DNA of 64,000 bases from assembly GCA_963778555.1 (NCBI GenBank), contig CAVZUR010000004.1, forward strand, positions 101,112 through 165,111, in the 5' to 3' direction. Positions 485 to 59,781 of the stretch are shown in pieces (positions within the stretch are counted from its first letter, which is position 1; the number at the start of each line of letters is the position of its first letter). The notes under the pieces were generated by a model. It searched no databases. It had not been told where the DNA came from and was given only the letters and a program-made list of their open reading frames with translations. The stretch is from Candidatus Moraniibacteriota bacterium (GTDB taxonomy: Bacteria; Patescibacteriota; Minisyncoccia; Moranbacterales; UBA1568). The translations under genes and the position numbers were made by a program.

Positions 485-2137
485 CTATTTCCGTCGCTTG
501 ATGGCCGCTTTAATGAAGGCATTGAAAATCGGATGCGGTTTGAGAATCGATGATTGGAATTCAGGATGAAACTGCACTCCCACGAAAAAGGGATGGACAC
601 GCCTTGGCAATTCCGCAATCTCCATAAGGATTCCGTCCGGAGAAGTTCCGGAAAAAACCAGTCCCGCCTCTCGAAGCCGAGCCACATACTCGGGACTCAC
701 TTCATAGCGGTGACGGTGACGCTCGATGATCTTTTTCGCCCCATATGCCTGTTCAGCCAGTGTACCTTTTTTGAGTACAGCGGCGTACTCCCCGAGGCGC
801 ATGGTACCGCCGTAATCCTTCTGGGCGAGTTTCGCTTTCTGTTCCGGCAAGATATCAATGACGGGATGCGGCGTTTTCGGATTGACTTCAACTGTATTCG
901 CAGACTTCAATTTGGCGACATGCCGAGCATACTCGATTACAGCGAGCTGCATGCCGTAACAGATGCCGAAAAACGGAATTGTTTTCTTTCGGCAATATTC
1001 GATCGCGAGGATTTTCCCTTCGACGCCTCGAGCACCGAAACCACCCGGGATGAGCACACCATCGAACCCCGAAAGCTCCCGCACCTTTTTCGCATCCTTT
1101 TCATACTCCGCCGCATCAATCCACGTGAGCTCGGGTCGGCGATGATTCACGTAGGCCGCGTGCTTGATTGATTCAATGACGCTGATATACGCGTCAGAAA
1201 GAACAAAATCGCCCGTTTTGAAGTATTTTCCGACTATCGCAACTTTCACAACACGTTTTAGGCGGCGGATATCGGACACTTTTTTCTTCCACGGAGATAG
1301 TGCCGACTTTCGTGATTTCAGATGGAAGCGCTCCAGAATAGCGTCTGAGAGTGCATCTTTCTCGAAATTAATCGGCACGTCATAGATGCTCTCGACGTCT
1401 GGAGCGCTGATAACGGACTGAGGCCGCATGCTGCACGAGACGGCAATCTTCTCTTTGCGGCGCTCGTCGAGCGGTCGCTCGGCCCGGGCAATAATGAAGT
1501 CCGCTTGGATACCGGCGCTATTCAAGGTCCGTGACGCATACTGAGTCGGCTTGGTTTTCATCTCGCCGATCTTGTTCGGAATCGGCAGATAGGAAACGAG
1601 CACGAAAAGCACGCTTTCAGGATCCTCATTCTTCATCATCCGAGCCGCCTCAAGAAAGAGGATATTCTGGTACTCGCCGATGGTTCCGCCGATCTCAATG
1701 ATGGTCACATCCGCCTTGGCCTTGTCTGCCGCGTGACGTATCGTCCCAATCACTTCGAGCGGAATATGCGGTACCACCTCAACACATTTTCCATGATACT
1801 CCAGGTTGCGCTCCCGACCGATGACGCGCTGATAGACCGATCCAGTCGTCATGTAATTGTCACGCGAGAGCTGAAGTCCCATGAAGCGCTCATAGTTCCC
1901 CATATCTTGATCCGTCTCGTATCCATCGGCCAGAACAAACACTTCGCCATGTTCCGTCGGGTTCATCGTCCCCGCGTCAACATTGATGTACGGATCAATT
2001 TTGATCGCCGTCACGGTAAGCCCTCGCGCCTGGAGAATTTTACCGATTGACGACGCTGCCACCCCTTTTCCCACCCCGCTCATCACGCCTCCAACGACAA
2101 AAATATACTTTCTGGACCGTTTTTGTTTCTCTTTCAT
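485..2137 (-). CDS. pyrG: CTP synthase
   Basis: Intact 550-aa ORF with N-terminal synthetase domain (VVGGVMSGVGKG) and C-terminal glutamine amidotransferase (GICYGMQ). Confidence 0.95.
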   Translation of the reverse strand: MKEKQKRSRKYIFVVGGVMSGVGKGVAASSIGKILQARGLTVTAIKIDPYINVDAGTMNPTEHGEVFVLADGYETDQDMGNYERFMGLQLSRDNYMTTGSVYQRVIGRERNLEYHGKCVEVVPHIPLEVIGTIRHAADKAKADVTIIEIGGTIGEYQNILFLEAARMMKNEDPESVLFVLVSYLPIPNKIGEMKTKPTQYASRTLNSAGIQADFIIARAERPLDERRKEKIAVSCSMRPQSVISAPDVESIYDVPINFEKDALSDAILERFHLKSRKSALSPWKKKVSDIRRLKRVVKVAIVGKYFKTGDFVLSDAYISVIESIKHAAYVNHRRPELTWIDAAEYEKDAKKVRELSGFDGVLIPGGFGARGVEGKILAIEYCRKKTIPFFGICYGMQLAVIEYARHVAKLKSANTVEVNPKTPHPVIDILPEQKAKLAQKDYGGTMRLGEYAAVLKKGTLAEQAYGAKKIIERHRHRYEVSPEYVARLREAGLVFSGTSPDGILMEIAELPRRVHPFFVGVQFHPEFQSSILKPHPIFNAFIKAAIKRRK

Positions 2138-53004: not shown

Positions 53005-54149
53005 CTAGCCTGAAAAACGGCTCCAGAATTCCAAGCGAAGAATATCATTCAGGGTAACGAGTACCATGAGTAAGATGAGGAGAATGAAGCCGACCTGATG
53101 CACATACCCCTCGACATTCGGACTGACCGGCGAGCCTTTAAGCTTTTCAATCAGAACGAAGAGGATACGGCCGCCATCCAAAGCGGGGATCGGCAGGATG
53201 TTGATGATACCGAGGTTGATCGAGAGGATCGCAGCGAAATAGAGGAGGTACGCGATGCCCAGTTCCGACATCTGCTTTGTCAGCGTAACGATACCGACTG
53301 GTCCGGCGATATCAACCTCAGTCTTCGCGCCGGTAACGAGGCTCGCCACCATACCGCCGAGCGCACCGAGAATCTCGCGCGTCTTCACATAGGTCTGCTC
53401 AAGTCCGAGCTGAATTGCCTGATACCACGGATAGCTGACCAACGCAGTTTCCGAGAAGCTGATGCCGAGGGCGCCTTCGCCCTCCGGTGCCGAGAGCCGG
53501 GGCGTACCGACAAGCTGCAACCTTTCTCCCCCGCGGTTTATCGTAACCGTAATCTCTGTTCCGCGGCGTTCTCGAATGTACGCCGAAACGGATTCCACGG
53601 ACGTGACCTCCGTCGTATCCAGCGACAGTATGAGGTCGCCCGCCTTCAGGCCAATTTCGTCGGCAGGCGTGCCCGGCTGCACCTGGAGAATCTGGATGTC
53701 GGTTTTTCCGTACTCATTCCGATGCGCCGGATCAATCTGCTCAGGAAAGCCGAGCATGAGTACGATCGAAAAAAGCACCCAGGCCAAGAGAAAATTCATG
53801 ACCACGCCGGCACCCAATACTTTGATCCGAGTCCAAGCCCCCCGGCCTGCGAAGCTATCGCGTTCTTCCAGGTGACTCCCCGATCTTCGCCTTTGATTTT
53901 CACGAAACCGCCGAGTGGTATCCAATTGATGGAGTAGACCGTATGCGGACTCGAAACCGAGACATTCCCCCAGACCAATCGGTACCGTCCAGTCGCATCG
54001 TCTTTCACGATACCGGCGAGCCGCGGCGGGAACCCAAAGCCGAACTCGTCGGCCTTGATGCCATTCATCCGAGCGACCATAAAATGGCCGAGTTCATGCA
54101 CAAAAACCAGAACACCGAGAACCAGGACGAAAATAAGAATCGTAAGCAT
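53005..54149 (-). CDS. rseP: RseP-like site-2 protease (M50 zinc metalloprotease with PDZ domain), one frameshift near 53880-53925
   Basis: HELGHF zinc motif in ORF 53796-54149; PDZ plus C-terminal TM half in 53005-53925. Confidence 0.85.
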
Positions 54150-54167
54150 AAGAGCAGCGAGTGCGGA

Positions 54168-54725
54168 TTAGACGGTCATGACTTCCTTTTCTTTCTTCTC
54201 CCGCACCGCTTCAAGTCGCCTATTGTAGTCATCGATGACTTTCTGAAGATCTTCTTTACCGCGGAATTTATCATCCTCCCCGATAAGACCCTCTTTCTCA
54301 GCCTCCTGGATTTCTTTCCACGCATCCTCTCGGGCGTTGCGGATAGAGATGCGCGCCTCCTCAGCCCGGCTATTGAGTGTTTTCACGAGTTCGTGCCGCC
54401 GCTCCTCGGTCAGCGCCGGCAGCATAATCCGAACAACCGAGCCATCATTCACTGGATTGAGGCCGAGATCAGATTCGCGGATTGCCGCTTCGATCTGCGT
54501 CAGCGACCCTTTATCCCACGGAGAGATCACGATCTGCCGCGGTTCAGGAACAGAAATACTCGATATCTGCTTCAACGGAGTCTGCGCGTTGTAATATTCG
54601 ACGAGAAGATTCTCAACGATGCCCGGATTGGCCCGGCCGGTTCGGAGCGTCCCCGCTTCTTCCGTGAAGTGGCTCAGCGCCTTATCGAACGCAGCTTTGC
54701 GGCCCTCAATGATGTCTTTGACCAT
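54168..54725 (-). CDS. frr: ribosome recycling factor
   Basis: MVKDIIEGRKAAFDKALSHFTEEAGTLRTGRANPGIVENLLVEYY...; 185 aa from the internal Met. Confidence 0.9.
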   Translation of the reverse strand: MVKDIIEGRKAAFDKALSHFTEEAGTLRTGRANPGIVENLLVEYYNAQTPLKQISSISVPEPRQIVISPWDKGSLTQIEAAIRESDLGLNPVNDGSVVRIMLPALTEERRHELVKTLNSRAEEARISIRNAREDAWKEIQEAEKEGLIGEDDKFRGKEDLQKVIDDYNRRLEAVREKKEKEVMTV

Positions 54726-54735
54726 ACAACAAGGA

Positions 54736-55926
54736 TTATTTCGATTTACGGAGACCAAGGTAGAGCACATCAGGATAGACCGGATCATAGGCCACGACCG
54801 AGACTTCACGATCAACATTGAGCGTATTCACCGACCACGTATCCCCGGCATTCAGCGACTTATAGAGCGTCTGACCGGCTACGAACACAATCTCGTTAGA
54901 ATTTTTCGGATTGATGGCGAAGGAGCGCAACGTGAATTTTTCAGCACTCTCGATGATATTCACTTTCTCAAAACTCTTGCCGAAGTCCCGACTGCGGTAC
55001 AATCCGGTCTTGGCGCCGGCGTAGAGGGTCCCCGAGATGTAGGGATCAGCGACGAGCGAGGCAGGAATTTGGGGAACAGTAGTCAGCGCTCCGATAGGAG
55101 CCGTCGGATTCTTCTGACGCTCTTCAGCCCGGACTTTTTCCCAATCGTCCCAGATTTCTCCGGCATCGTGCGAAACATAAATCTTGGAATTGAAAGCCAG
55201 CAGATACATGATGTTTTTGTCCTGGGCGTCAAAAACGATGGCAGTCACCGGACCATTCACTTTGGCACCGACATTCTTCCACGTGTCACCACCATCAAGA
55301 CTCTTCACGACCGTCCCAGTACTCGTCCCCGCAAAGAGGAGATTGACATCAGTCGGATGCTCCGCGAGAGAAACCAGTGTCGTCTTGGGACCAGGCTCAC
55401 TGTAGACATCCTGCCAGCTGGCACCACCGTCCACCGTCCGAAAGATCTTCCCCCGCTCGCCCACCACACCAGTCGCATACATGCGATTAGGGCTGCGACG
55501 CGATGCAATGAAGCTATAGACTTTGCTTGGCGGAAAAATAACCGGCTCCCACGTCTCGGCGCCATCGCTCGTTTTGAAGATCTGATCCTCTATCGTTCCA
55601 ACATAGACGTCCGGCGTCCGGCCGAGCTCTTCCGCCCTCGTCCGATCATCATCGCGCAGCAGAAACGATATCTCAAGCACGTCGGCCTTGGTGACTTTCC
55701 GTTTTTCATCGACATAAACTTTCGGGGCAAAGGTCTTGCCACCGTCATCCGATCGCCAGAGGCTGCCCGGCTGAGCTTTCGTATCAAAAGCCGAGGATGG
55801 GGTCGTCCCGCTGTTCCCGAGTTTGGGAGGCGTCACACTGCAGCCCGAAAGCGTCACCATGGCGAGCGAGAGCGCACTTAACCGCAGAATGTTCTTGAGC
55901 ATAAGGATCAGTCTCTTTCGCCTCAT
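54736..55926 (-). CDS. lipoprotein with BNR/Ycf48-like beta-propeller repeats
   Basis: MRRKRLILMLKNILRLSALSLAMVTLSGCS lipobox; repeated DGG(K/A/D)TW motifs. Confidence 0.75.
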   Translation of the reverse strand: MRRKRLILMLKNILRLSALSLAMVTLSGCSVTPPKLGNSGTTPSSAFDTKAQPGSLWRSDDGGKTFAPKVYVDEKRKVTKADVLEISFLLRDDDRTRAEELGRTPDVYVGTIEDQIFKTSDGAETWEPVIFPPSKVYSFIASRRSPNRMYATGVVGERGKIFRTVDGGASWQDVYSEPGPKTTLVSLAEHPTDVNLLFAGTSTGTVVKSLDGGDTWKNVGAKVNGPVTAIVFDAQDKNIMYLLAFNSKIYVSHDAGEIWDDWEKVRAEERQKNPTAPIGALTTVPQIPASLVADPYISGTLYAGAKTGLYRSRDFGKSFEKVNIIESAEKFTLRSFAINPKNSNEIVFVAGQTLYKSLNAGDTWSVNTLNVDREVSVVAYDPVYPDVLYLGLRKSK

Positions 55927-56189
55927 TATACCATGGCGTAAAAAAGCGAAAACCCACTCCCAAGCAGGAAGCTTTCCAGACTTAGCGCAGGCTTGATTGG
56001 GTGGGTGCGGGGGGAATCGGTCACCTCTTTTACGCGCCGTCGCGCGTTCATTCCTCGACCCCAGTATTTTGGTTTTTTCGGTTGAAAAAACATCAAAATA
56101 CTTTTCGACTCCCCACGTACGCAAAGTAGTTTGCGTACTCCGCACCAAAATGAAAAAATCCACACTGAGGTGCGAATTTTTTCATTTGG

Positions 56190-56262
56190 TGGGTGCGGGG
56201 GGAATCGAACCCTCGACCGTTGGCTTAAAAGGCCACTGCTCTACCGACTGAGCTACGCACCC
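56190..56262 (-). tRNA. tRNA-Lys (anticodon TTT)
   Basis: GGGTGCGTAGCTCAGTCGGTAGAGCAGTGGCCTTTTAAGCCAACGGTCGAGGGTTCGATTCCCCCCGCACCCA; one A-C mismatch in the T-stem. Confidence 0.85.
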
Positions 56263-56319: not shown

Positions 56320-57645
56320 CTAGGCTTTCTTCCGGATGATATCCACCCCCACAAATGGTCGCAAGACTTCAGGTACCCGGATACTGCCATCCGCTGCCTG
56401 AAAATTCTCAAGTATCGCAATCAGGATGCGTGGCGTCGGCAACGCAGTGTTATTCAGCATATACACATAGTGTTTTTCTCCCGTGGTAACATCCCGGTAT
56501 TTTACGTTGAGCCGCCGGGATTGCCAGTCGAGAAAATTCGACGCCGAGCCCGTCTCGCCATACCGGTTCAAACCGGGCATCCAGGCCTCCAAATCAAATG
56601 CACGGTATTTTCCAGCGCTCATATCACCGGTACAGATCTGGAGCTTACGATACGGCAGCCCGAGTTCTTCATGCATTTCTTGTGATAACCCGATCATCTC
56701 TTCTTGGAGCGCGTCGGCCAGATCCCGGTCTGCCGGAGCAATGATGACTTGTTCGACCTTCATGAACTCATGGACGCGATAGAGACCCTTTGTCTCTTTG
56801 CCATACGATCCTATCTCGCTCCGGTAACACTGGCTGAAACCAGAGAGGCGGAGGGGAAGATCTTTTCCCTCTAACACTTCCCCACTGTAATAAGCCAAAA
56901 GCGACGGCTCAGAAGTTCCGACAAGAAATTTTTTCTCTCGGCTGAGACTGCCATCGCTTTCCTTGTCAGCCGATGCGACTTCATAGACTTCATCCACCAA
57001 TCCGTCGTACTCGAGGCCCTTGAAGTATCCTGATCCGAACAGTGGGTAGCCCTTCACGAGCGTCGGCGGAATCATCGGTTGGTATCCCTTGGCCGCCAGT
57101 TTCTGGGTGGCATAGAGCATCAGACCCATGACGAGGAGTACGCCTTCGTTTTTCACATAGTAGCCGCGATAGCCACCGACTTTCGCACCCCGCTCAAGAT
57201 CGAGAATGCCTAAGTCCTGACCCAGTTCGATATGTGTTTTCGGAGCGAAAGCAAAGTTCGGTTTCTCGCCCCAGGTATAGAGCTCCTTGTTCCCGGCGTC
57301 ACTCGTTCCTATCGGCGTATCTGGCGAGACAACATTGGGAACTGCCGCCATGAGCGCATCAAATTCCGCCTTGACTGATTTCCATTCCGGCTCAGTCACA
57401 TCAAGTGCAGTTTTAATCTCTTTTCCCTTCGCAATTACTTCCGTCCGTTCTTCGGGTGAGGCGGCTGATTGGATGAGGGTATTGATATCGTTTTTCAACG
57501 ACTTCAGTTCTTCCAATTTTTGGAGCAGTACGCGCCGCTTCGCATCGACGTCCAGCAAACGATCAATATCAAGCGTGAGATTCTTATTCTGAATCGCCTC
57601 CCGGAGTGTAGACACATTGTCCCGAATGAATCCTATATCGAGCAT
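56320..57645 (-). CDS. serS: seryl-tRNA synthetase
   Basis: Intact 441 aa, N-terminal coiled coil plus class II core. Confidence 0.95.
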   Translation of the reverse strand: MLDIGFIRDNVSTLREAIQNKNLTLDIDRLLDVDAKRRVLLQKLEELKSLKNDINTLIQSAASPEERTEVIAKGKEIKTALDVTEPEWKSVKAEFDALMAAVPNVVSPDTPIGTSDAGNKELYTWGEKPNFAFAPKTHIELGQDLGILDLERGAKVGGYRGYYVKNEGVLLVMGLMLYATQKLAAKGYQPMIPPTLVKGYPLFGSGYFKGLEYDGLVDEVYEVASADKESDGSLSREKKFLVGTSEPSLLAYYSGEVLEGKDLPLRLSGFSQCYRSEIGSYGKETKGLYRVHEFMKVEQVIIAPADRDLADALQEEMIGLSQEMHEELGLPYRKLQICTGDMSAGKYRAFDLEAWMPGLNRYGETGSASNFLDWQSRRLNVKYRDVTTGEKHYVYMLNNTALPTPRILIAILENFQAADGSIRVPEVLRPFVGVDIIRKKA

Positions 57646-57687
57646 ACGCAGCGGGCGAAAAGTTTAGGGGGGCGAAAAAGTGATACC

Positions 57688-58053
57688 TTAGCTATTATAC
57701 CAGCTTTTCAATTCAGTGAGATCCACCTCAGCACTCAGGTAAAAGATGGGGATATGCCGACGCGTGGCCGAATCAATCTCAACTTTCGTGCCCGCGGAAT
57801 TCTCCCACCCTGGCATTACGGCCAACGCATCTGCTCTCTCCGCAAGCACCCACTCACTGAACACCTTCAGTGTCCGTCGGACCGTTTCGCTCGAAAGTTT
57901 TTCGTACGTAATATCATGCAGATTGGGAGTATAGGCGGCAATGCCGGCCTCAGCCAGCGCAATCTGGAATCGCTTTGCCTGTTCGACATGCCGCCCGATC
58001 GTTTCCGGCTGCATGTCTCCCCGATATGGTCCTGCGACAAAAACAATTTTCAT
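57688..58053 (-). CDS. DUF4406 / nucleoside 2-deoxyribosyltransferase-like protein
   Basis: MKIVFVAGPYRGD ... ADALAVMPGWENSAGTKVEI pattern. Confidence 0.6.
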   Translation of the reverse strand: MKIVFVAGPYRGDMQPETIGRHVEQAKRFQIALAEAGIAAYTPNLHDITYEKLSSETVRRTLKVFSEWVLAERADALAVMPGWENSAGTKVEIDSATRRHIPIFYLSAEVDLTELKSWYNS

Positions 58054-58055
58054 AC

Positions 58056-58256
58056 GGCGGTCGCTAGTGGATTCGAACCACCGACCCCTGTATATTCACC
58101 CGTTAGACCTTTGTGGTCGCACCTGGACTCGAACCAGGGACCCTTGCAATGTGAATGCAATGCTCTAACCAACTGAGCTATGCGACCATCCTCTCAGGTC
58201 AGTCTAACGGGGTGAAAATGCAGTGCTCTAACCAAATGAGCGAAGCGACCAAACTC
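58056..58256 (-). other. split tRNA-like gene whose 5' half (58201-58250) and 3' half (58056-58110) flank the tRNA-Val gene and pair into a perfect 7-bp acceptor stem
   Basis: 5' half GGTCGCTTCGCTCATTTGGTTAGAGCACTGCATTTTCAC+CCCGTTAGAC; 3' half GTCTAACGGG+TGAATATACAGGGGTCGGTGGTTCGAATCCACTAGCGACCG; junction helix CCCGTTAGAC/GTCTAACGGG. Confidence 0.4.
58114..58187 (-). tRNA. tRNA-Val (anticodon CAC)
   Basis: GGTCGCATAGCTCAGTTGGTTAGAGCATTGCATTCACATTGCAAGGGTCCCTGGTTCGAGTCCAGGTGCGACCA. Confidence 0.85.
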
Positions 58257-58296
58257 AATCCACAATCTACCGTTTTCACGGCCCATTGTCCATCCC

Positions 58297-59781
58297 CTAT
58301 TCAGTTTTCGTCTTCATCGGCGGGAAGATGACCGTCTCGCGTACCGACTTGTCCATGAGGATGGCGAAGAACCGCTCGCTCATGCCGAAACCGAAGGCCG
58401 GCGGCATCCCGTACTCGAGCGCCTGGAGGAAATCCTCGTCAAGCATCTGCGCCTCGGTATCCCCCGCCGCGCGCAGCTTCATCTGCACTTCAAAACGCGC
58501 CCGCTGATCGATCGGGTCGTTGAGCTCAGAAAAACCGTTGCCGAGCTCACTCCGAGCGGCCACGGGTTGCATCCGGAGAGTACGACGCGGATTCTTGGCG
58601 TCCAGTTTCGCCAAGGGTGACACCTCAACCGGATGGCCGACCAGAATACACGGCTGAACGAGTTTCTGGCGCACAGTCTTCTTGTAAATCGTATCGATGA
58701 GCCGCCCTTTACCCGCTGACGGATCGTAAGCGATGTGAAGCGCAGCGGCCTTGGCACGGAGGGTTTCGACGGAAACATCATCGGACAAATCAATACCAGT
58801 TTCTCGTTGAAATTCAGTAAAGTAATCGACGCGTGGGAAGGGCACGCTCCAATCAATCACGACTCCCTCATGCGTGGTATGGAGCGATTCACCCGCTACG
58901 GCTCGAACGATTGATCGATAGAGTTCTTCCACCATTGCGCACCCGGCCTCGAAATCCATATACGCACCATAGCACTCCATATGGTCGAATTCCTGAAGGT
59001 GCTCGCGATCAATCCCTTCATTACGAAACACGCGACCGATTTCGAAGACCCGTTCATAACCGCCAACAAGGAGGCGTTTCAACGGGAGTTCCAATGAGAT
59101 GCGGAGGAAAAAATCCTGGTCCAGTGCGTGATGATGGGTGACGAATGGTTCGGCTTCGGCACCACCCGGCACATGCTCCAGGACCGGAGTTTGCACTTCC
59201 AAATACTTTTTCTCCGTCAAAAACTGTCGAATCGTCTGCCAAAACACGTTTTTTTTCACAAATAGGTCGCGCGTCGCCTGATTCATCATGAGATCGAGGT
59301 AGCGTTTGCGGAGCAGCTGCTCTTCATCTTTCAAGCCGTAGAATTCCGCAGGAATCGGCAGGAGCGATTTCGAAAGCATCTGCCAGCTCTCGACGCGGAC
59401 GCTCTGTTCGTTTTGTTTCGTGAGAAAAACCGTTCCCGTCATTGATAGGAAGTCGCCAATCTCAACCGTCTCTTTGAATAAGAGAAACGGTTTCGTCTCT
59501 CCAGACGCATCAACCGGGGCGCGCATCTCTTCTGAAAAAAATCCTTGTATCTTTCCGGTACCGTCCTCGATATGGCAAAAGGCGATCTTGCCCATGCTGC
59601 GCAGTGAACGGACGCGGCCGACGACCGACACCAGCGTATCCGTACCGTTCAATTCATCAAAACGATCAAGGACGTCTTGGTTCCGATGTGTCCTCAGGGC
59701 TTTTTCTGGATACGCCGAACCCAGTGTCGCAACGAGTGTCGCGAGTTTTTCATGTTTTACGGAGAGAATATCTTCGCGCAT
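58297..59781 (-). CDS. lysS: lysyl-tRNA synthetase (class II)
   Basis: Intact 494 aa, OB-fold anticodon-binding domain plus class II core. Confidence 0.95.
   Translation of the reverse strand: MREDILSVKHEKLATLVATLGSAYPEKALRTHRNQDVLDRFDELNGTDTLVSVVGRVRSLRSMGKIAFCHIEDGTGKIQGFFSEEMRAPVDASGETKPFLLFKETVEIGDFLSMTGTVFLTKQNEQSVRVESWQMLSKSLLPIPAEFYGLKDEEQLLRKRYLDLMMNQATRDLFVKKNVFWQTIRQFLTEKKYLEVQTPVLEHVPGGAEAEPFVTHHHALDQDFFLRISLELPLKRLLVGGYERVFEIGRVFRNEGIDREHLQEFDHMECYGAYMDFEAGCAMVEELYRSIVRAVAGESLHTTHEGVVIDWSVPFPRVDYFTEFQRETGIDLSDDVSVETLRAKAAALHIAYDPSAGKGRLIDTIYKKTVRQKLVQPCILVGHPVEVSPLAKLDAKNPRRTLRMQPVAARSELGNGFSELNDPIDQRARFEVQMKLRAAGDTEAQMLDEDFLQALEYGMPPAFGFGMSERFFAILMDKSVRETVIFPPMKTKTE

Follow-up and report, generated by a model that had tools for sequence, protein, structure and literature searches.

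The interruption of tRNA genes, including the debate on early or late introns and on the origin of split tRNAs, is a long-standing question that has so far been argued almost wholly from archaeal and algal cases. In Archaea and red algae, disrupted tRNA genes include canonical, non-canonical and multiple introns of the bulge-helix-bulge (BHB) type as well as split, tri-split and permuted genes (PMC4033280, PMC4090602, PMC3978253), and transposition of tRNA introns in the Thermoproteales is mentioned elsewhere (PMC10714607). tRNA genes are also targets of integrative elements, such as prophages, islands and plasmids of the pNOB8/SSV type, which carry a partial tRNA copy and thereby regenerate an intact gene, as considered in a model of archaeal tRNA gene disruption (Sugahara et al. 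2012, PMC3293823). Additionally, group I introns that are missed by standard tRNA finders have been reported from tRNA anticodon loops in the same phylum as the genome studied here (2026, PMC13011429), in a study that reports no tRNA-Val, tRNA-Ala or nested tRNAs. Nested bacterial tRNAs have no published description in the literature that we searched. Among bacterial RNA genes, the intervening sequences (IVS) of 23S rRNA are extended stem-loops that replace the tip of a helix, occur sporadically and are cut by RNase III without religation.

Here, we present the analysis of a nested tRNA locus in the genome of a Candidatus Moranbacteria (CPR) bacterium, located in a window of 64,000 nt, that is, the whole stretch of DNA that was analysed. 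The Russian-doll layout of this locus recurs across dozens of uncultured CPR bacteria. Our main reading, to which we assign a probability of roughly 0.6, is that a hairpin-armed cassette carrying a replacement tRNA was inserted in a resident tRNA gene, which is now a relic, and that such cassettes form a recurrent family in CPR bacteria.

Anatomy of the nested locus

The nested layout is real. On the minus strand, a tRNA-Val-like cloverleaf at 58250-58058 has its anticodon swapped for a 122-nt insert, which consists of a 14/15-nt inverted repeat (TTCACCCCGTTAGAC / GTCTAACGGG(G)TGAA) around a complete tRNA-Val(CAC). The locus has the following features:

58264-58292, minus strand: promoter-like site TGGACA-17-TAGATT, immediately 5' of the outer 5' half (consensus match)
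58217-58250, minus strand: 5' half of the outer tRNA-Val-like gene, GGTCGCTTCGCTCATTTGGTTAGAGCACTGCATT, with positions 1-33 and one extra D-loop base
58202-58216, minus strand: left arm of the insert, TTCACCCCGTTAGAC, with the family core TTCACCCCGTTA (repeat finder and sequence)
58188-58201, minus strand: 14-nt spacer between the left arm and the inner tRNA, TGACCTGAGAGGAT
58114-58187, minus strand: inner intact tRNA-Val(CAC) (ARAGORN; Rfam RF00005, 70.9 bits, full model)
58109-58113, minus strand: 5-nt spacer CAAAG, 3' of the inner tRNA
58095-58108, minus strand: right arm of the insert, GTCTAACGGGTGAA, base-paired to the left arm in the MFE structure
58058-58094, minus strand: 3' part of the outer tRNA-Val-like gene, with TA at 58094-58093 followed by the 3' half at 58092-58058
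57688-58053, minus strand: DUF7768/DUF1937-family ORF, with its start codon 4 nt past the discriminator of the outer tRNA

The outer 5' half contains the acceptor strand GGTCGCT, the D arm, the 5' strand of the anticodon stem and U32 U33, and the outer 3' part contains the TA junction, the anticodon-stem strand TACAG, the variable loop, the T arm, AGCGACC and a discriminator G. An earlier, sequence-only reading of the locus had described a tRNA-like gene in two halves around a structured insert, the latter bearing a functional-looking tRNA-Val, and this description is upheld. It had also pointed to a perfect 7-bp acceptor stem with canonical D and T arms, which agrees with our result that the outer acceptor stem is paired at 7/7 positions (GGTCGCT/AGCGACC) and that both arms are canonical; the outer anticodon stem has one C-A mismatch, which comes from the TACAG strand. 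The complementary 10-nt segments noted at the inner boundaries were recovered by the repeat finder as an inverted repeat that is perfect over 10 nt and followed by an extension, the latter being imperfect. Two of the earlier measurements had to be corrected: the spacers are 14 and 5 nt long rather than 13 and 3 nt, and the break, which had been placed near position 38, falls after U33, with positions 34-37/38 absent.

The inner tRNA-Val(CAC) gene does not encode CCA and is presumed to be the working gene of the locus. Identity between the outer and inner genes is 85% for the 5' halves (over 40 nt) and 78% for the 3' halves. The MFE fold of 191 nt (58249-58059, the unit less one base per end) is a nested double cloverleaf of -70.2 kcal/mol (z = -3.3), and shuffled sequences were as stable in 0 of 200 cases. 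The promoter-like site is the sole match within 57600-58500, its TAGATT box is also kept 5' of the tRNA-Val locus in the relatives L001, L003, L004 and L034, and a scan of the same region (57600-58500) found no terminators in the nested locus. This site probably drives a single transcript comprising the outer half, the inner tRNA and the downstream genes. The DUF7768/DUF1937 ORF lies 3-4 nt after an intact tRNA-Val in L002 and L027, and the outer gene of the window is the copy originally joined to this ORF.

Two tRNA-Val(CAC) backbones are combined in the window (inner type A, outer type D), and other Moranbacteria have one or the other as their sole intact gene. L003 and L034 have a single tRNA-Val(CAC) downstream of lysS, to which the inner gene of the window is identical; the outer gene differs from the inner type at 13 positions and from the L021 type at only 6. 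Five outer substitutions (A9C, G15U, G40A, A49G and A73G) are absent from both intact type D genes. Of these, G40A produces the C-A mismatch in the anticodon stem, and A49G is probably a lineage variant, because L006, L012 and L013 have it too, in their type D 3' remnants. In E. coli, A73 matters for tRNA-Val identity. Further, the right junction of the window, TGAATATACAG, is mutated, lying 3 positions off the expected TGAAG-T-TGCAG, an expectation put together from the arm end of the D-loop type, GGGGTGAAG (L013, L014), from U38 and from the stem TGCAG, as it is in intact type D genes. The outer gene of the window is thus best read as a disabled resident tRNA-Val(CAC), a probable relic with damaging substitutions.

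The family of nests and its arms

The same architecture was found in 31 distinct nests with the arm core CCCCGTTA/TAACGGGG, originating from other genomes and from metagenomes of many studies, and this recurrence is far beyond chance. Comparison with relatives had been proposed in the sequence-only reading, and it gave the same layout in a second assembly of the species as well as in these nests. The inner gene is a tRNA-Val(CAC) in 14/31 and a tRNA-Ala(CGC) in 17/31 nests, counts for which the metagenome search pattern demanded ...GCATT ahead of the arm and thus favours tRNAs whose anticodon stem fits it. Inner and outer genes always agree in kind, and the ...GCATT pattern guaranteed every match at least a stub of an outer gene. 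A GGTTAGAGC-like context filter left 6 loci, and a re-parse by arm complementarity 36 matches.

Nesting is reciprocal, as type A lies within type D in the window and type D within type A in L004, and two Ala backbones are likewise nested in both orders. One nest (L172) has three complete levels, and another multi-level nest (L144) has an array of five orphan 5' halves without matching 3' halves on the contig. Outer copies span from intact to truncated. For 18 of the 31 nests, exchanging the element for the four missing bases (anticodon and A37) gives a canonical tRNA called by ARAGORN (two bases rather than four suffice in the ...CAAGCAT junction variants among them), which means that the element stands in for positions 34-37 and leaves the outer gene without an anticodon. 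No such rebuilding was possible for the other 13 outer genes, of which seven are truncated on the 5' or the 3' side and four contain additional hairpin inserts; in another one the junction is mutated, and the last (L134) is cut by the contig end.

The insert sites are tRNA loops (anticodon, D and T), and the D-loop nest shared by L001, L209 and L214 has been kept across several species-level lineages, which counts against the cassette reading. In L013, the outer gene is a chimera of a type C 5' half and a type D 3' half, and the outer gene of L214 differs from that of L001 in its 3' part; judging from their sequences, these chimeric outer genes are products of recombination between tRNA alleles. 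The outer gene of L004 bears a donor-type 5' anticodon stem, and some replacements have left fragments without arms (L218, L011, L006-L012). Outer halves can exceed the inner gene in conservation between related loci (L143 vs L171; L106 vs L141), and this, together with the 18 perfectly formed outer genes, could mean that outer structure is under selection.

With all loci pooled, there are 41 distinct arm pairs; a 12-nt arm core is common to these pairs from other loci and has remained invariant while the surrounding tRNAs diverged strongly. In the arm helix, 93.5% of the cells pair and nine pairs have changed on both sides, which was matched by 0 of 500 shuffles, and a U-G wobble on the sense strand is kept in 22 of 24 arm sequences. 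The junctions are precise and identical across very different tRNA backbones and two isoacceptor families, with U33 directly followed by TTCACCCC on the left and GGGG-YRRG directly followed by U38 on the right, around the element core TTCACCCCGTTA ... TAACGGGG + YRRG. The consensus junction comprises a 2x1 loop, 2 bp, a 2x2 loop and at least 8 bp. Spacers in the other family members are 3-18 nt long and unconserved. Arm hairpins without a tRNA, also outside tRNA genes, are found in L014, L131, L138, L151 and L203, at times several per contig, and some of these tRNA-less copies have unrelated internal sequence; two copies of the element lie on one contig in L138, L172 and L203. The left-arm TTCAC was also considered as a piece of the Val anticodon loop, an origin that was rejected since the TTCAC arm is also present in tRNA-Ala(CGC) nests. 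The arm motif TTSRCCCYGTTA / TAACRGGG represents a conserved and simple searchable marker for such relics.

Proposed processing and insertion, and rival explanations

Several results bear on whether the outer gene could be an intron-containing or split tRNA gene. ARAGORN did not call the outer gene, neither in the intron modes suggested by the sequence-only reading nor at lowered thresholds, and none of 792 in-silico joins of the window halves gave a tRNA-Val(CAC), the calls that appear having arbitrary anticodons. Removal of the insert leaves a loop of 3 to 5 nt without an anticodon, and family-wide it never gives a 7-nt Val or Ala anticodon loop. Group I introns have a catalytic core (P3-P9) and a length of about 200 nt or more. 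The insert has 122 nt, of which 74 nt are tRNA and about 48 nt are not, and Rfam scans of 57900-58400, at the gathering threshold and at E <= 10, returned the inner tRNA only, with no group I core, ribozyme or intron; RF00028 (group I) had no match at the window locus. A BHB motif is formed by two 3-nt bulges on opposite strands with a 4-bp helix between them. No such 3-4-3 arrangement is present in the MFE folds of the window and seven other nests, in which the junctions form an almost unbroken helix, disturbed by single mismatches, small internal loops or a 1-nt bulge. A split or permuted tRNA was rejected, as the halves are co-linear and 122 nt apart and the anticodon lies in neither of them.

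These results also sort the interpretations that had been offered at the outset. The statement that the insert is not a group I intron agrees with the lack of a group I core in the Rfam scans. Of four candidate readings, a tRNA-targeted micro-insertion is the one that the evidence backs. An undescribed intron, if taken as a spliced one, is unsupported in view of the missing group I core and BHB and of the missing anticodon after removal, a permuted tRNA is not applicable to halves in normal order, and a local duplication is rejected since inner and outer genes have different backbones, each intact elsewhere, and since L004 is the reciprocal case.

The locus was also compared with known classes of mobile DNA. 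The insert of the window has no ORFs, and clustering of the ORFs within +-3.5 kb around 32 nested loci revealed no recurrent transposase, integrase or homing nuclease. A UPF0102/YraN neighbour was seen at 4/32 nested loci, which may be plain synteny. Classical integrase integration was rejected: its expected products are chimeric tRNAs in tandem or att direct repeats, and the locus is a nest with inverted-repeat ends and no linked recombinase. Terminal inverted repeats, as expected for MITEs, are present at both ends of the element in the 41 arm pairs (12-nt core and covarying extension). A DDE-type MITE was rejected because there is no target-site duplication: the element is flanked by ...GCAUU and U-UGC..., with two or four target bases missing and none duplicated. 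The neighbourhoods of the 32 nested loci contained no autonomous partner element. An integron attC site was considered since GTTAGAC/GTCTAAC fit GTTRRRY/RYYYAAC, and rejected since the arm order is inverted: on either strand, GTTA belongs to the 5' arm and TAAC to the 3' arm, the opposite of attC; many family arms also break the attC consensus (e.g. GTTAGAA and GTTACAA vs GTTRRRY). A scan of viral contigs for the arm-tRNA-arm arrangement found tRNA-less arm hairpins in L203/L204 and chance matches, and no tRNA-bearing cassette.

The cassette reading takes as its base what is directly observed, namely the anatomy, its recurrence and reciprocity, the arm covariation, the unrestorable outer anticodon and the range of decay states. 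On this reading, the cassette is probably a small insertion element that disrupts a gene and at the same time supplies a spare copy of it. A resident tRNA-Val(CAC) with the 'GGTCGCT' backbone would have had its anticodon and position 37 replaced by a cassette made of a conserved inverted-repeat hairpin with a tRNA-Val(CAC) of a different backbone in the hairpin loop. Such cassettes would repeatedly enter tRNA genes of their own isoacceptor, at the anticodon loop and sometimes at the D-loop. An insertion would be free of cost to the cell, since a replacement gene comes with it, and it could recur inside the new copy; repeated insertion inside new copies would build up the Russian-doll nests, while the outer halves would later be lost through point mutation, truncation and more hairpin insertions.

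For expression, we infer one transcript from a promoter 5' of the outer 5' half, in which the arms and the outer anticodon stem would form a rod of about 21 bp. The inner tRNA may be released by RNase P and 3'-end processing, possibly with RNase III cutting the rod, and the outer halves would be by-products of this processing. As for spread, we favour, as a guess, a first step that is specific to a structure or site and supplied in trans, after which tRNA alleles would undergo homologous recombination; such a scheme would account for the chimeric outer genes. The mobility of the cassette is deduced from its distribution, as there is no target-site duplication and no empty allele was found in a near-identical genome. 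A near-isogenic empty site was searched for and not found: the LysRS and DUF7768 proteins of the window occur in one other assembly only, which has the same nest, and the next-nearest LysRS relative has 83% identity. That these elements represent a new bacterial class, a tiny protein-less hairpin-armed cassette that homes to the anticodon loop (or D-loop) of a specific tRNA gene and, by bringing a complete copy of that tRNA, restores its own target and can nest repeatedly, is a tentative proposal that we regard as possible rather than probable. Loop insertion and the U-G pairs on the sense strand are compatible with an RNA-level or single-strand structure-guided mechanism, and also with a processing of the outer tRNA-like rods to stable RNAs that would have their own function.

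An explanation that competes with the relic status of the outer gene is that this gene is functional, the hairpin and inner tRNA being a new bacterial tRNA intron or the outer gene a two-piece tRNA. RNase P and RNase Z would excise the inner tRNA, the arm helix would hold the halves together and a ligase, e.g. RtcB, would be optional; the product would be a tRNA with a loop from retained arm bases (e.g. UUCAAGU) or a non-decoding tRNA-like RNA, which for the Ala type could still be charged via G3-U70. Retaining the last four arm bases does give a 7-nt loop with U33 and G37, yet no excision at the element ends gives a Val or Ala anticodon, and the product would duplicate the inner isoacceptor. 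Inserts in anticodon, D and T loops, like those of archaeal introns, and the RNA-level pairing suggested by the arm covariation and by the sense-strand U-G in 22/24 arms are in line with function; set against them are the lack of a BHB motif, a group I core or another Rfam ribozyme. In 18/31 outer genes the acceptor, D, anticodon and T stems are perfect, and outer halves are sometimes more conserved than inner genes between related loci, but 13/31 outer genes are truncated, further interrupted or (one) cut by the contig end, and in the window copy there is a C-A mismatch, G15 is lost and A73 is changed to G73. Intact-looking stems are in themselves no evidence of function, because the orphan halves of L144 look as 'healthy' as complete outer genes. 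We consider a functional outer gene unlikely.

We would give somewhat more credit, while still doubting it, to an origin without a dedicated mobile element, in which the arms would be a leader-trailer stem for the processing or expression of certain tRNA genes and the nests would arise from foreign DNA taken up by CPR bacteria, through homologous or homology-facilitated illegitimate recombination with the tRNA halves as homology arms. The chimeric outer genes (L013, L214 vs L001), the donor-type 5' anticodon stem in the outer gene of L004, the armless fragments (L218, L011, L006-L012) and the lack of a recombinase gene linked to the nests all fit such an origin, and homology-driven exchange predicts that inner and outer genes are always of the same isoacceptor, as is the case. 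However, random illegitimate joins are unlikely to reproduce identical precise junctions across backbones and two isoacceptor families, the 12-nt arm core is invariant amid strongly diverged tRNAs, arm hairpins are also found without tRNAs and outside tRNA genes, and the first insertion would still need a mechanism. Finally, the nest could be an artefact or a trivial event, that is, a mis-assembly of two adjacent tRNA genes, whose similarity (85% and 78% over the halves) can confuse assemblers, or a local duplication that arose recently and then decayed. The same nest is present in L201, an independent Logan assembly from a different sample that is 99.84% identical over 4937 nt, with one difference inside the locus, GGGG for GGG in the right arm (GTCTAACGGGGTGAA), so that the arms there form a perfect 15-bp inverted repeat. 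The same nest in a second, independent assembly of the species excludes a mis-assembly, as is also indicated by the 31 distinct loci from many studies. A tandem duplication cannot yield a nest with inverted-repeat arms, and the inner and outer backbones differ and are each intact elsewhere, which makes an explanation of this kind hardly credible.

Significance and comparison with known systems

The dataset provides dozens of bacterial snapshots of one process, including an intact target, a fresh nest, a multi-level nest, a chimeric outer gene, a truncated relic and orphan halves. With a precise junction and a conserved arm motif that can be searched for, the mechanism is directly testable. Standard tRNA finders see the inner gene only, and tRNA-like relics and arrays of halves therefore go unannotated in CPR genomes. 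Should the outer rods prove to be processed, or the cassette to be a homing element that compensates for its own insertion and has no protein gene linked to it, this would represent a new principle for mobile DNA and tRNA biology.

With the disrupted tRNA genes of Archaea and algae, the family shares structured inserts in anticodon, D and T loops and related inserts in different tRNA genes, but it differs in its bacterial host, in having no BHB, in an excision that leaves no anticodon and in an insert that is a complete tRNA of the same isoacceptor. The flanking helix resembles the leader helices of split tRNAs, and L144 has one 3' half after several 5' halves, although the orphan halves of L144 do not pair with the available 3' half. 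As in the 23S rRNA IVS, the tip of a conserved helix has given way to a long hairpin and the occurrence is patchy, and the rod of ~21 bp is a plausible RNase III substrate; in contrast, rRNA with an IVS is functional as fragments whereas the anticodon is lost here, the IVS comes without a replacement gene, and RNase III cleavage is for the present family a putative step. The group I tRNA introns (PMC13011429) occur in the same phylum, have the same anticodon-loop target and are missed by standard finders, but the cassette has no catalytic core, contains ~48 nt of non-tRNA sequence, and splicing at its ends would not rebuild the loop.

Like MITEs and REP/BIME-like repeats, the elements are short and non-coding, have conserved terminal inverted repeats and varied interiors, and reach several copies on some contigs. 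Unlike MITEs, they are associated with the loss of 2-4 target bases without duplication, their target is highly specific, namely the loops of cognate tRNA genes, they carry a functional-looking tRNA cargo that is always co-oriented with the target, and no partner transposase was found. Compared with tRNA-targeting integrative elements, the cassette is only ~120 nt long, lacks an integrase or other protein gene and carries a whole tRNA rather than a 3' segment, and it forms a nest rather than attL/attR around kilobases, with inverted rather than direct repeats and no recombinase nearby. What it shares with these elements is a tRNA target, often the anticodon loop, an incoming tRNA sequence that compensates for the disruption, and displaced fragments that can accumulate in series.

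Structure and setting of the nested unit

The window is bacterial chromosome, and LysRS-syntenic loci of species-representative genomes place the host in Candidatus Moranbacteria/Moraniibacteriota (CPR/Patescibacteria). On the minus strand, the gene order is MreC, PBP2, GreA, LysRS, tRNA locus, DUF7768 ORF, SerRS and tRNA-Lys. The tRNA locus holds a nest, i.e. a complete inner tRNA gene lying within a split outer tRNA gene, with an inverted repeat (the arms) around the inner gene.

Components of the nest in the window
58250-58058, minus strand: nested unit, 193 nt in full
First part of 58250-58058, minus strand: outer 5' half, 34 nt
3' of the outer 5' half, minus strand: left arm, TTCACCCCGTTAGAC
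Between left arm and inner tRNA, minus strand: spacer, 14 nt
58187-58114, minus strand: inner complete tRNA-Val(CAC) (ARAGORN, Rfam)
Between inner tRNA and right arm, minus strand: spacer CAAAG
Minus strand: right arm, GTCTAACGGGTGAA, then TA
Last part of 58250-58058, after TA, minus strand: outer 3' half, 35 nt

The inner gene is the sole call at the locus by ARAGORN and Rfam, and ARAGORN did not call the outer gene, including in the intron modes that had been proposed as a check. The outer gene has an acceptor stem paired 7/7, canonical D and T arms and one C-A mismatch in the anticodon stem. The minimum free energy (MFE) fold of 58249-58059 (191 nt) is a nested double cloverleaf (z = -3.3), in which the arms continue the outer anticodon stem to form a long rod, and the full 193-nt unit folds identically. 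A repeat finder also recovered the inverted repeat and gave 85% and 78% similarity between the outer halves and their inner counterparts. Fold and repeat finder thus confirm the split tRNA-like gene that the sequence-only reading had described. Additionally, window 58257-58272 (directly 5' of the outer 5' half, with an overlap to the putative -10 box) shows, over 16 nt, 81% complementarity to 58058-58073 at the 3' end of the outer T-arm/acceptor, which may be chance.

The same reading had left room for mis-assembly, and this was ruled out by an independent Logan assembly of the same species (L201, run ERR11593397), which matches the window at 99.84% identity over 4.9 kb and shows the nest in the same layout. 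Inside the locus, the single difference is one extra G in L201; with this base, the two arms form a perfect inverted repeat of 15 bp. The nested arrangement is real and reproducible.

A promoter-like site matching consensus (TGGACA-17-TAGATT, putative) lies directly 5' of the outer 5' half and no terminator was found within the tRNA locus, so the inner gene is probably transcribed from the outer gene's putative promoter; such sharing would also explain why inner and outer genes are always co-oriented. The DUF7768 ORF (57688-58053; 57688-58057 with the gap to the tRNA) begins 4 nt past the outer 3' end, as it follows intact tRNA-Val by 3-4 nt in two other loci (L002, L027), and this marks the outer gene as the older resident copy. 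The closeness of the DUF7768 start to the tRNA 3' end suggests an mRNA that either lacks a leader or is coupled to processing.

Between tRNA-Val and serS, relatives carry different genes (DUF7768, NUDIX, PNPOx + DUF7768; L002, L027, L012/L013, L209, L212) and a PnuC-like ORF lies between lysS and the tRNA in L209/L214, which points to a hotspot for small cargo as well. Three consecutive plus-strand ORFs of 279, 292 and 420 aa (53098-55881), for which no Pfam match was found, adjoin tRNA-Lys (56187-56262, minus strand) and run in the opposite direction to the housekeeping genes around them.

Variation of the tRNA-Val locus among relatives

The order lysS, tRNA-Val(CAC), (serS) is retained in close relatives, and the state of the tRNA locus is very variable.

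States of the tRNA-Val locus in close relatives
L003, L005, L034, L211, L212, L217: one intact gene, with one of several backbones
L004: anticodon-loop nest as in the window, backbones swapped
L013, L008, L001/L209/L214: D-loop nests, arms in opposite order
L014: D-loop arm hairpin without tRNA
L006, L007, L010, L012, L019: intact gene, then 3' fragments
L008, L218: 5' fragments, then intact gene
L013, and L214 compared with L001: chimeric outer genes, halves from different backbones

Together, these states characterize what appears to be a hotspot of tRNA-Val replacement. In the window, the inner backbone is GGTCGCA (type A) and the outer GGTCGCT (type D), while L004 has GGTCGCT inside and GGTCGCA outside. 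No base differs between the window's inner gene and the only gene of L003 and of L034, and the window's outer halves are nearest to type D (L021 and the L004 inner gene), with 6-7 differences compared to 13 from the inner type. As inner and outer genes are of different backbones, the local duplication offered by the sequence-only reading was ruled out.

Five outer-gene differences are absent from both intact type D genes (A9C, G15U, G40A, A49G, A73G). G40A is the source of the C-A mismatch, and A49G is probably a lineage variant, since L006, L012 and L013 share it in their type D 3' remnants. The right junction, TGAATATACAG, is 3 positions off the expected TGAAG-U-UGCAG, a composite of the arm end found in the D-loop type (GGGGTGAAG), U38 and the anticodon stem of type D. 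In the window, the outer copy is most plausibly a relic in decay that encloses a functional replacement gene.

A wider family of arms, nests and loop inserts

Metagenome contigs were scanned for the left junction GCATTTTCACCCYGTTA and hits were re-parsed by arm complementarity, giving, together with the lysS loci, 41 distinct arm pairs, 31 of them nested tRNAs. Of these 31 nests, 14 have tRNA-Val(CAC) and 17 have tRNA-Ala(CGC) as the inner gene, a restriction that may not be real given the bias of the search pattern (…GCATT), and the outer halves match the inner gene's kind in all 31. In the Ala family, too, two backbones are nested reciprocally. The consensus consists of outer positions 1-33, TTCACCCCGTTA with 3-6 variable nt, spacer and tRNA on the left, and of spacer, the complementary 3-6 nt with TAACGGGG and YRRG, U38 and outer positions 39-76 on the right. 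Junctions of a second type (stem-UUCA/arm) occur with other anticodon stems in L144 and L172, the latter a complete three-level nest.

Swapping the element for the four missing bases (anticodon and A37) yields a canonical tRNA called by ARAGORN in 18/31 nests, including ...CAAGCAT variants for which two bases suffice. The remaining 13 outer genes are not rebuildable (seven truncated, four with extra hairpin inserts, one with a mutated junction and one cut by a contig end). Five different 5' halves were seen on L144 and on three near-identical contigs; an arm comes after each of them, and the series closes with one intact gene and one 3' half that fits the last 5' half only. No matching 3' halves for the others were found elsewhere on those contigs. 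In L143, the T-loop of the inner tRNA-Val (1041-1113, minus strand) is atypical, with UCCGAUU in place of UUCGAUU, and G1 is paired with U72, while the outer gene is pristine, so either copy, or neither, may be the functional one there.

In an alignment of 24 fixed-register constructs, the 8-bp core CCCCGTTA/TAACGGGG is nearly invariant apart from a compensated change of one C-G pair to U-A, and the five pairs beyond it covary. Of all alignment cells, 93.5% are paired, with both sides changed in 9 pairs; these values were reached by 0/500 shuffles, and slid registers all collapse. This supports selection on the arms as a hairpin, as does a U-G wobble at the helix base, retained in 22/24, which pairs on the tRNA-sense strand only and weakly favours pairing in RNA or sense-strand single-stranded DNA.

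Eight arm pairs lack a tRNA, and some lie outside tRNA genes or two per contig. L070 (7666-7810) and L078 (7348-7490) have arm hairpins without a tRNA in which the right arm TAACAGGGTAA lies directly 5' of the start codon of serS; it looks like a Shine-Dalgarno sequence and pairs with an anti-SD-like left arm. In the IMG/VR contigs L203 (2590-2770) and L204, an intergenic region contains two nested arm hairpins together with GC hairpins. A tRNA-like gene at L070:7220-7560, not called by ARAGORN, has the acceptor CAGTCCG/CGGATTG, normal D and T arms and a ~60-nt insert replacing the anticodon loop, with repeated 3'-end fragments and terminator-like hairpins downstream.

Short GC-rich hairpins (e.g. 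CCCGCCCGAACG...CGTTCGGGCGGG, UCCGCCCAAGGCGGA, CCUGCCCGCCUUGGGAGGG) occupy exact loop positions, after U17, A21 or C56 or in the variable region, with no tRNA bases lost, in copies of tRNA-Val, tRNA-Ala and tRNA-Lys that are mostly already fragments. They make up another family of inserts specific to loops, separate from the arm hairpin.

Loci with GC-rich hairpins
L001:5480-5780, L006:5600-5740, L007:5575-5625, L010:1640-1700
L011:5470-5720, L012:5590-5680, L019:5565-5615, L013:8360-8400
L090, L110, L114, L174, L144 (5' half #1)

Origin of the nests and comparison with known systems

Most likely, judging from these comparisons, a conserved hairpin-armed cassette with a complete tRNA took the place of the anticodon in resident genes of its own isoacceptor on many occasions, with either backbone serving as host or as insert and with repeated rounds at a single locus, and the outer copies decayed afterwards. 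Such a cassette would be tolerated because the replacement gene comes along, and could be hit again because the target is regenerated. Homologous recombination between tRNA alleles would afterwards shuffle outer halves and inner genes (L013, L214 versus L001, L004). The unit would be a single transcript, with the inner tRNA released by RNase P and 3' processing and the ~21-bp rod possibly cut by RNase III.

ORF clustering within +-3.5 kb of 32 nested loci revealed no linked recombinase or other gene that could catalyse primary insertion, and a search for a near-isogenic empty site found none. A UPF0102/YraN-family ORF (predicted PD-(D/E)XK nuclease) lies beside four nests of both kinds (L102, L111, L162, L193), directly downstream of two Ala-type and within ~1 kb of two Val-type nests, which may reflect nothing more than synteny or may point to a factor acting in trans.

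Several known identities were rejected. For a group I intron, already dismissed on size in the sequence-only reading, the core is lacking, the insert is too small and its ends fail to rebuild the loop. The MFE folds rule out a BHB intron, and the permuted arrangement that had also been suggested was rejected for the nest, as was a split gene. The arm order is inverted relative to an integron attC site, classical integrase insertion is countered by the lack of linked recombinase and att direct repeats, and a DDE-type MITE by target bases that are lost, not duplicated.

The outer gene could instead be functional, whether as an intron of a new type, as a tRNA in two pieces or as a tRNA-like signal for processing of the downstream ORF that abuts it. 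This explanation stays alive because over half of the outer genes have stayed perfect, some related loci differ less in their outer halves than in their inner genes (L143 versus L171; L106 versus L141), and the D-loop nest of L001, L209 and L214 persists in several lineages. However, the orphan halves of L144 look just as pristine, and stem integrity by itself therefore does not demonstrate function.

We found no description of this architecture in full-text literature on nested, tRNA-in-tRNA or CPR disrupted tRNA. The window's nest is one visible case of a phenomenon that is widespread and, it appears, undescribed. It can be classed as an insertion into a tRNA gene that compensates for itself, and there is a substantial chance that its mechanism is new. 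The closest concepts include tRNA-targeting integrative elements that restore their target, among them the archaeal model of tRNA gene disruption by such elements (PMC3293823), as well as archaeal disrupted tRNA genes and intron transposition, rRNA intervening sequences and MITEs.
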